A DNA stretch of 64,000 nt from Escherichia coli (GTDB lineage Bacteria > Pseudomonadota > Gammaproteobacteria > Enterobacterales > Enterobacteriaceae), in assembly GCF_030013205.1 (NCBI RefSeq), contig NZ_CP122648.1; one strand, 5' to 3'. Made by a program: the position numbers. Every line of letters begins with the position of its first letter. The stretch's first letter is position 1. Below are positions 59,901 through 62,900 of the stretch, in pieces.

Positions 59901-62900
59901 GGACTCCGCACCGCCGTGTTCTTCGGTTCAAGTCCCAACATCCGGGCGAACTGGCGTGTTTCATTAGCCCGGTAGCATGAACCATTATCCGTCAGCCACT
60001 CCACTGGAGACGACGGAAGATCGTTGCCGAAGCGGCGTTCCACCGCTCCCAGCATGACGTCCTGTACTGTTTCACTGTTGAAGTCGCCGGTAGTCACCGC
60101 CCAGTGCAGTGCCTCACGATCACAGCAGTCCAGCGCGAACGTGACACGCAGTCTCTCTCCGTTATCACAGCAGAACTCGAACCCGTCAGAGCACCATCGC
60201 TGATTGCTTTCTTTCACGGCCACTCTGCCTGTATGTGCCCGTTTCGATGGCGGTACAGCAGGTTTTCGCTCAAGCAACAGCGCATTCTGGCGCATGATCC
60301 GGTAAACACGTTTGGCATTGATCGCAGGCATACCATCAAGTTCTGCCTGTCTGCGAAGCAGCGCCCATACCCGACGATAACCATACGTGGGCAGCTCTCC
60401 GATAACATGGTGTATACGGAGAAGCACATCCGTATCATCAGTGTGACGACTGCGGCGGCCATCCATCCAGTCATCGGTTCGTCTGAGAATGACGTGCAAC
60501 TGCGCACGCGACACCCGGAGACAACGGCTGACTAAGCTTACTCCCCATCCCCGGGCAATAAGGGCGCGTGCGCTATCCACTTTTTTGCCCGTCCATATTC
60601 AACGGCTTCTTTGAGGAGTTCATTTTCCATCGTTTTCTTGCCGAGCAGGCGCTGGAGTTCTTTAATCTGCTTCATGGCGGCAGCAAGTTCAGAGGCAGGA
60701 ACAACCTGTTCTCCGGCGGCGACAGCAGTAAGACTTCCTTCCTGGTATTGCTTACGCCAGAGAAATAACTGGCTGGCTGCTACACCATGTTGCCGGGCAA
60801 CGAGGGAGACCGTCATCCCCGGTTCAAAGCTCTGCTGAACAATTGCGATCTTTTCCTGTGTGGTACGCCGTCTGCGTTTCTCCGGCCCTAAGACATCAAT
60901 CATCTGTTCTCCAATGACTAGTCTAAAAACTAGTATTAAGACTATCACTTATTTAAGTGATACTGGTTGTCTGGAGATTCAGGGGGCCAGTCTAATTACT
61001 GTCCGGGAAAACAGGAATACGAGACAGTAGGACCCGATTCCCCGGTAAGGATGTACACCAGACCGTTCCCTGTTTGAGAATGATGATTGTGCGCAGGTGA
61101 GGTTTCAGAGCTGCTTCAGTGCCAAGCTGATATTGCTCCTCGAGGTCGCATTCCTTCCCGGCAATGTTAACCGCCGTTTGAGTCGCCTGTGACGCTTCTT
61201 CAAGTATATGATTGATATTGTTGGCGGCATATCTTGCTCCCGCCAGGTACTCTGCTTTTGCGGAATACCAGAGCTGGATGTTCAAAATAGTGACACCGGT
61301 TATAAACAAGCATATCGCAATGAAGATGGGTATGAGTGTATTGCGCATTTGCTTGTCCCGGCCAAAGGGTTTAATACATGAAAATGCCATTCATTCGCTC
61401 GCACTGGCATCTACAGAGAGCATGGTAGAGAGCATAAGAAATATCCACGCTGAAGATAAAATTTTCTCCATCTTCATCTAACCTATTAATTATTGAGCAC
61501 AATGTAGTCAGAATTAAACAAATTAGGTGGGATATCAGGCGTCAAGAATGGAAAACGAGCGCTCTCCATTCCTGTTTGCCCCCTGATATTGCGGATATAT
61601 TAAGAAAGCATAACGCCTGAAATGCTCACTTTGCACCAGCATGATGATACAGCTGATGTTTATTCTATAACCTTACTCAAGTTCTAAGAGAGCACTGATT
61701 CCCTGTCATTAATAATGATATCCGTTAGTGTAGTCTTATGCATTTCAATGTACTGCAAGATTTGCAGATAGAGATCAGAAAGAATCACACTAGTTTCATC
61801 TTTTAAACGCAAGCGTAAAGCCTTATCAATAATATGACTATCAACATACCCGTGCGTCATGAGCACCTCCCTCTCGAGATTTTTAAACAAAGCACATTGA
61901 AAAATAAATCTCTCGGGGATTGAATTATTCATGTCAGCCTCGTAGGAATATTGACCCAATAAAATTATGCTGTGTATAGTCTAAAGCGACAGACAAAAAT
62001 AAGATGACTGAGTTTTCTATAAACTTATACTTAATAATTAAAAGTTACATATCATCAGCTGTGTATCGCAACACGATTTCCAGTGTTTTTCTAATCACAT
62101 CAGCTTTGAGAATATCACTTGTTGTTTCCAGAGAGTGTATCAGACTTAAGATAATATTTTTATTATTAACATTATCGCCTGAAAGCATTAAATTGGTCAC
62201 AGCCTGCCCTAACACAGCTGACTCTTCTTCTAACAAATTACCTGAACTACGAAAGTAGCTTGATAACGCTTTATCAGTTATTGCATTATGAATTGTAGTA
62301 TCTTCAAGCATGGTAACCTCTCATCTTACTTATGAAATTTTAATGTATTCTGTTTATTTTCTTACCATTGAACATACTTTTATTGTCAGCTATCGCTGTT
62401 CTTCTGTTTGGCTCTCCTGTATCACTGTTGCTAAAATCACGAATTATGCTGTCAATTAAATCTCGTCGGAAAGCATTTTCCTCAACCGATTTCATTACGA
62501 GTAATTGCTTAATAAGAGTCTGTAACGAAAAATTTATCTTCATGCGCAGTATATGGAGCACCGCCTGGCCAGTAATTTCATATTTTGTACTTTCATTATC
62601 AGATGTCTTCATAACGACTTCATAGCTAACCTGTTAAATAATCAGGCTGTTGCATTATTCAAAAAGCAACCCAATTAGTGCATTATAATGTTTCTGTTCC
62701 TCTTCCCCTGTCGCTTGTTCCAGTCGGCATAGAAGTTTGGCACAAAGCGACTTTCGACTCAGATTACGTCCATCTTTCAAAATCTCAGTCACAATTTCCC
62801 CGAGAGTTTCCTGCTGAGTAGGCAAGTTAGCTTTTGCAAAGTAACGAGTGATTGCTCCCGCAGAATCTAAAGTCACTGAATTTTGATGCATGCTACGCCT

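Follow-up and report, generated by a model that had tools for sequence, protein, structure and literature searches.

A probable programmed −1 frameshift site in a complete IS2 copy that interrupts pdeG in Escherichia coli

Introduction

A window of 64,000 nucleotides of Escherichia coli DNA, which is the whole stretch analysed here, carries an IS2 copy with a short A-rich motif on the minus strand. This locus raises the question of whether the motif is a signal at which translating ribosomes change frame, and it raises the further question of whether the element that contains it can still transpose. An earlier note, made from the sequence alone, had assigned the motif to the overlap of insC and insD as an A6G slippery site and had proposed, from the motif and the termini, that this copy is transposition-competent.

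The A6G window is an established frameshift site of IS2 (PMC3219604, PMC3299598). These two sources describe a 46-kDa OrfAB protein that is produced at low frequency via A6G, for which they cite Hu et al. 1996 and Lewis & Grindley 1997. An A7G mutant of IS2, in which the two frames are fused, has also been described, and the transposition pathway runs through a figure-of-eight and then a minicircle with a junction promoter (PMC3219604, PMC3299598). Sharma et al. 2014 list the IS2 insC cluster with the shift site A_AAA_AAG_2 and products of 108, 409 and 121 aa (PMC4066793). For the same cluster they find synonymous variability to be reduced and list no SD as conserved (N/Y in Table S4). The hairpin that they list as conserved measures 72 nt, comes after a 6-nt spacer, and has a first stem of 9 bp and 0.539 kcal/mol per nt (Table S8; PMC4066793).

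Results

A complete IS2 element interrupts pdeG

The element is 1331 bp long (59664..60994, minus strand, as are all features given below unless marked otherwise) and is a 100% match to NZ_CP122643.1, the sequence of the pig ETEC strain ETEC4079. PGAP labels the gene in that genome as an IS3-like element IS2 family transposase with a programmed frameshift, and the annotation places IS2 between two pdeG pseudogene fragments, downstream of bluF-ycgZ-ymgA-ariR-ymgC. The host gene, pdeG, is a CSS-motif/EAL cyclic-di-GMP phosphodiesterase gene. Transfer of the PGAP pseudogene annotation of ETEC4079 to the window gives a 5' fragment that contains the CSS-motif domain (60995..61348), and the open reading frame, the PGAP annotation and the empty-site join described below give a 3' fragment that contains the EAL phosphodiesterase domain (58489..59663). 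IS2-like matches occur in 4853 of 5426 complete E. coli genomes, which makes the element ubiquitous. The 64-kb window has no second IS2 copy, and the ETEC4079 chromosome has seven further IS2-matching places.

Both ends of the element are present. The IRL of 42 bp starts with 5'-TAGACTGG (60953..60994) and was aligned to the IRR of 41 bp, which ends in ...CAAATCCA-3' (59664..59704); IR lengths of 42/41 bp are those reported for IS2 (PMC3299598). The IRR is identical to that of K-12 IS2A, and the IRL has G at position 32, where K-12 has A. Position 32 is one at which IRL and IRR already mismatch, and the first 61 bp of IS2 including G32 have exact matches in no fewer than 2350 E. coli records, which indicates a common allele. 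The usual length of the IS2 target duplication is 5 bp. Directly read, the sequence GTAAT flanks the element on the IRL side (60995..60999) and on the IRR side (59659..59663), the latter being also defined by the empty-site join. When the flanks were joined with one GTAAT, the resulting 395 bp matched the intact pdeG of many E. coli genomes at 100%, which indicates clean transposition into pdeG. The claim of intact termini is therefore upheld by the presence of IRL and IRR, by the 5-bp duplication and by the reconstruction of the empty site.

A weak extended -10 promoter has been described with TGAT at IS2 positions 48-51 (PMC3299598). A simple sigma-70 scan of the element did not pick up this promoter; TGAT is present at IS positions 48-51 and is unchanged relative to K-12.

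The A6G motif lies in slippery phase where both transposase frames are open

The first reading frame, orfA (insC / InsA; 60538..60903), encodes 121 aa that form the DNA-binding regulator and the N-terminal part of the transposase, and it was identified as an ORF with a Pfam HTH_Tnp_1 match (1.8e-19). The second, orfB (insD; 59675..60580), encodes 301 aa from a GTG and matches Pfam HTH_21, rve and rve_3, and this division of the Pfam domains between the two frames is as expected. Matches to IS2-specific NCBIfam models exceed their cut-offs for both parts, with 238.8 bits against 229 for the IS2 repressor TnpA (residues 1-111 of the 409-aa fusion) and 721 bits against 597 for the IS2 transposase TnpB. 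The orfB frame is −1 relative to orfA and is open from 60598, and the orfA stop codon UAA lies at 60538..60540. Both frames are uninterrupted (orfA is frame 2 of the element, orfB is frame 1), which confirms the intact state and the −1 relationship on which a frameshift reading depends.

Direct reading and a motif search both gave CAAAAAAG at minus-strand positions 60587..60580, so the A6G motif is where the earlier note had placed it. The leading C of this octamer is outside the slippery heptamer A_AAA_AAG, the candidate −1 frameshift site (60580..60586), which is in phase 2 relative to the orfA ATG. The orfA codons at the site are GCA AAA AAG UGG, which puts the heptamer in X_XXY_YYZ phase with its first A at codon position 3. 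The heptamer also falls within 60598..60541, the only stretch that is open in orfA and in the −1 frame of orfB alike, and a rough estimate of the probability that an in-phase A_AAA_AAG would occur by chance within that stretch of ~19 codons is ~1e-3. The placement of the motif in the insC/insD overlap holds for this open-frame overlap but not for the annotated overlap (60538..60580), which includes only the final G of the motif (60580), the first base of the insD GTG. As a bare 8-mer, CAAAAAAG is not over-represented, with 2 occurrences observed in the 64-kb window against 4.4 expected from shuffles. The second occurrence, at 46909(+), was rejected as a shift site, as it is inside pliG in the non-slippery phase AAA_AAA_G.

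A −1 shift at the heptamer would give a fusion of 409 aa, of which the first 108 aa run to the end of the motif and the rest is in the orfB frame, where the next codon is GUG. The predicted OrfAB junction is ...EYGRAKKVDSAR, with the peptide ...GRAKKVDSAR, in which valine at the junction marks read-through from orfA; an independent start at the GTG at 60580 would put Met in place of this valine. The NCBIfam model transpos_IS3 (cut-off 160 bits) matches the 409-aa fusion with 279.5 bits, and this one continuous match covers residues 17-392 and includes the junction at residues 108/109. A PDB sequence search with the fusion returned no match at E<=0.01. In the numbering of PMC3219604, the codons of the catalytic residues are those of D240 (60185..60187), D306 (59987..59989) and E342 (59879..59881), which is 35 residues after D306, and the codon of K349 is at 59858..59860. 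Comparison with the IS2 reference shows that all four residues are kept at their published positions and that the A6G window is unmutated and in phase. Furthermore, the 21 IS2 transposase residues that have been mutated experimentally (PMC3219604) are all wild type in the window copy.

A predicted hairpin lies six nucleotides downstream of the heptamer

Sequence and folding place a spacer of 6 nt, UGGAUA (60574..60579), between the heptamer and a predicted stimulatory hairpin of 72 nt (60502..60573), which has an MFE of -36.8 kcal/mol, or 0.51 kcal/mol per nt. Its basal stem consists of 9 bp, is G-C-rich and pairs GCGCACGCG (60565..60573) with CGCGUGCGC (60502..60510), and the orfA stop codon falls in the upper part of the hairpin. 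Published rules for downstream structures specify a start 4-10 nt after the motif, a G-C pair first and at least 3 further pairs (PMC4066793), and the hairpin predicted here, with its 6-nt spacer and 9-bp first stem, conforms to them. The fold of the 86-nt context is only moderately better than those of shuffled sequences (z = -2.05).

Comparison among relatives points to conservation of the basal stem. The comparison covered 12 sequences of the IS2 group, the most distant of which are ~65% identical to IS2 over the full protein, and the stem is paired in 108 of 108 cells. One basal pair shows a compensatory change from C:G to U:A in 6 sequences (ISEc27/36-like and ISEc48), and two pairs change to wobble pairs; the covarying positions are synonymous third positions of codons in the orfB frame. 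For the upper part of the hairpin, RNAalifold and the per-sequence folds disagree among the relatives, and we claim conservation for the 9-bp basal stem only.

Inspection by eye of the region 6-17 nt upstream found no GGAG/AGGA-type motif that could act as an SD-like stimulator, a feature that is optional and not defining. A scan of the IS against Rfam at a permissive E-value gave only chance snoRNA-like matches (E 2.4-8.8), and no curated Rfam family covers the IS2 frameshift element. The product sizes and hairpin geometry that we derived independently equal the published IS2 values. Motif, product sizes and hairpin have all been published for IS2 already.

The motif is best explained as a programmed ribosomal frameshift site

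What marks a real recoding signal is the context and not the bare octamer: the heptamer is in phase, it lies where the two frames overlap, and a conserved hairpin begins 6 nt after it. On this sequence evidence, the motif almost certainly serves a complete IS2 (IS3 family, IS2 group) in pdeG as its site of programmed −1 ribosomal frameshifting. Under the proposed mechanism, most ribosomes that translate orfA would read GCA AAA AAG UGG and go on to the UAA stop, which would yield the 121-aa OrfA regulator. A minority would pause with tRNA-Lys on AAA and AAG because the 72-nt hairpin starts 6 nt downstream. These paused ribosomes could move back by one base to AAA AAA, after which they would read GUG GAU and be in the orfB frame, and the resulting −1 product would be the 409-aa OrfAB transposase, in which the HTH and leucine-zipper part is joined to the DDE catalytic core. 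Frameshifting at low frequency would keep the transposase scarce relative to OrfA and so would limit transposition. That frameshifting at A6G leads to a 46-kDa transposase is taken from published work on IS2.

An alternative that we consider very improbable is transcriptional slippage, in which RNA polymerase would add one A within the A6 run and thereby produce an mRNA equivalent to A7G. Translation of such an mRNA would give AKKV at the junction, as a −1 shift does, so protein sequence cannot separate the two mechanisms. However, efficient slippage by E. coli polymerase needs runs of ~8-9 or more A/T, and the run here has only six A. The exact X_XXY_YYZ phase of the heptamer also argues against slippage, as does the conserved hairpin, which is at the 6-nt spacing typical of ribosomal stimulators and is not needed by slippage. 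In addition, some relatives shift on A_AAA only. Another alternative treats the motif as an A-rich octamer that arose by chance and plays no part in decoding, with orfB expressed only from the GTG at 60580. It can draw on the unremarkable frequency of the 8-mer in the window and on the K-12 annotation, which gives insD as a separate CDS from that GTG. Its probability is negligible in view of the phase, overlap position and hairpin, a shift-prone A-run at the same place in 11 of 11 relatives, the unbroken match between the fusion and full-length IS3-family transposases, and the 46-kDa fusion protein detected for IS2 according to work cited in PMC3219604.

G274D and the competence of the window copy

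The copy is identical to K-12 IS2A at 1326 of 1331 positions, and the five differences are at IS positions 32, 606, 900, 911 and 1281. Those at 606, 900 and 1281 are synonymous in orfB. The difference at 911, which is G-to-A at 60084, creates a GAC codon (60083..60085) and with it G274D in OrfAB (G166D in OrfB). Same-site IS2 copies in pdeG of other pig ETEC strains show 99.9% identity, and the copy from K_EC180 (South Korea), compared base by base, differs at position 911 only and has G there, which suggests that G274D probably arose after the insertion.

The frames, heptamer, catalytic residues and termini all speak for the earlier proposal that the element is transposition-competent, and G274D, which changes a conserved glycine, adds a caveat to it. 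One rival reading is that the copy is crippled, such that the frameshift site is intact and G274D weakens or abolishes the transposase, leaving a fixed relic in pdeG. In favor of this reading, the change is the sole difference from the K_EC180 copy, and the equivalent glycine is kept in all 7 of the IS2-group relatives compared for that residue, down to ~65% identity. Furthermore, L266P, H267D and R291H, which are near residue 274 in beta-strand 3 and alpha-helix 1, impair the IS2 transposase (PMC3219604), and a 100% identical IS2 copy was found in no record besides ETEC4079. On the other side, the published secondary-structure map of the catalytic core (PMC3219604) puts residue 274 between beta-strand 3 and alpha-helix 1, and the residue is not itself catalytic. 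The 61-mer with the change at 911 is also found exactly in 120 of 4546 matching E. coli records, and an identical OrfB of 301 aa is encoded in three or more further contexts. Of these, two are complete insertions in one assembly that have their own perfect 5-bp duplications, ACGAT and GTAAA, and a third distinct left junction was seen for the identical OrfB.

G274D is probably tolerated, because the identical OrfB sits at other sites with duplications of their own. We therefore regard the crippled-copy reading as unlikely, although it retains some weight, and we conclude from sequence comparison that the IS2 copy in the window is probably competent. A crippled transposase would be compatible with a genuine frameshift site. 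Mobilisation in trans by other IS2 copies is possible, and it bears either way on the competence of the D274 protein.

An improbable further idea is that G274D is not neutral but a functional allele that may alter transposase activity, and that the pdeG copy may have acquired it through gene conversion by a different IS2 copy and not through a point mutation. Positions 911 and 1281 are found in all four combinations in IS2 copies. Were the idea true, the locus would illustrate, on a small scale, how IS copies evolve in concert and have their activity tuned within a lineage of pig ETEC.

Discussion

The appropriate annotation of the site, and the one that PGAP already gives, is a single IS2 transposase gene with a programmed −1 frameshift; pdeG is to be treated as an IS-disrupted pseudogene in the ETEC4079 lineage. 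The site may be useful as a positive control for genome scans and carries little weight beyond correct annotation.

The closest known system is K-12 IS2A (insC1/insD1), which has the same 1331 bp, IRL/IRR (apart from position 32), orfA/orfB layout, A6G window, 72-nt hairpin and D240/D306/E342; the two copies differ in insertion site, which is pdeG for the window copy and yaiX for IS2A. IS911, a member of the IS3 group of the same family, also has A_AAA_AAG, a 6-nt spacer and the division of OrfA and OrfAB into regulator and transposase (PMC4066793, PMC5009743). IS911 is stimulated in addition by an SD-like GGAG upstream, and its structure is a three-way junction, whereas IS2 has no conserved SD, a longer hairpin of 72 nt and a 9-bp basal stem (PMC4066793). 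E. coli dnaX resembles IS2 in that A_AAA_AAG is decoded by tRNA-Lys ahead of a downstream stem-loop (PMC5009743). However, dnaX has an upstream SD and yields a shortened protein (gamma) at high efficiency, whereas IS2 yields an extended fusion at low frequency.

Among IS2-group elements on Enterobacterales plasmids, ISEc27, ISEc36 and ISEc48 share with IS2 the layout, the 6-nt spacer, the 9-bp stem and the glycine equivalent to G274, and they differ in having 65-86% protein identity and a basal stem with the compensatory U:A. Their shift sites also vary: the ISEc27/36-like elements have A_AAA_AAG with an extra A in front of it, one element has A_AAA_AAA, and the ISEc48-like elements have only A_AAA.

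Disruption of pdeG by IS2 in pig ETEC

Within the window, pdeG (ycgG; 58489..61348, minus strand), which encodes a CSS-motif/EAL c-di-GMP phosphodiesterase and adjoins the bluF-ycgZ-ymgA-ariR-ymgC cluster, is split by IS2. Near-identical IS2 elements that overlap a cyclic diguanylate phosphodiesterase gene are listed for the chromosomes of several Belgian pig ETEC strains and one South Korean strain, and we confirmed that pdeG is likewise annotated as split in K_EC180 (South Korea). These occurrences suggest that pdeG has been inherited as a pseudogene within this pig ETEC lineage.

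Sequence variation among IS2 copies

The sole difference between the window copy and the same-site copy of K_EC180 is a G-to-A substitution at IS position 911 (window 60084), which results in G274D in OrfAB, the -1 fusion of orfA and orfB. When IS position 911 was considered together with IS position 1281 (window 59714), all four combinations were present among IS2 copies: A-C in the window, G-C in its siblings, A-T in an insertion elsewhere with its own 5-bp duplication (L006), and G-T in K-12. The presence of all four implies recurrent mutation or else gene conversion between IS2 copies. Within the IRL, the window copy encodes G at IS position 32 (window 60963) vs A in the K-12 reference copy IS2A. 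This G is common, since at least 2350 E. coli records match the first 61 bp of this copy without a mismatch, and position 32 sits in a portion of the IRL that is already unlike the IRR.

Frameshift signals in IS2 and IS2-group relatives

An alignment of IS2-group relatives across the frameshift region (L016-L020 and L023-L026) revealed that the 6-nt spacer and 9-bp stem are constant and that shift sites vary: ISEc27/ISEc36-like sequences feature A_AAA_AAG with an additional A in front, L024 features A_AAA_AAA, and ISEc48-like sequences feature A_AAA only. The stem of the ISEc27/36-like sequences and ISEc48 contains a compensatory C:G to U:A pair.

On plasmid pNCYU-26-73-2 (CP042617.1; L022, about 955-960), an IS2 copy that is close in other respects contains A5G, not A6G, leaving its frameshift window one A short, which would place orfB beyond the reach of a -1 shift; either the copy is dead or the missing A reflects a sequencing error in the homopolymer. 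The OrfB of K. pneumoniae pkp2001 (L017) reads VERLTDYGS vs VEWLTDNGS in other relatives, with the changes flanking the second catalytic Asp, and that of L016 is truncated after LTDN; by sequence, both look like decaying copies.

The only further occurrence of CAAAAAAG in the window (46909..46916, plus strand) lies within pliG (46742..47143). We rejected it as a shift site because its phase in pliG, AAA_AAA_G, is non-slippery; it is a chance occurrence.
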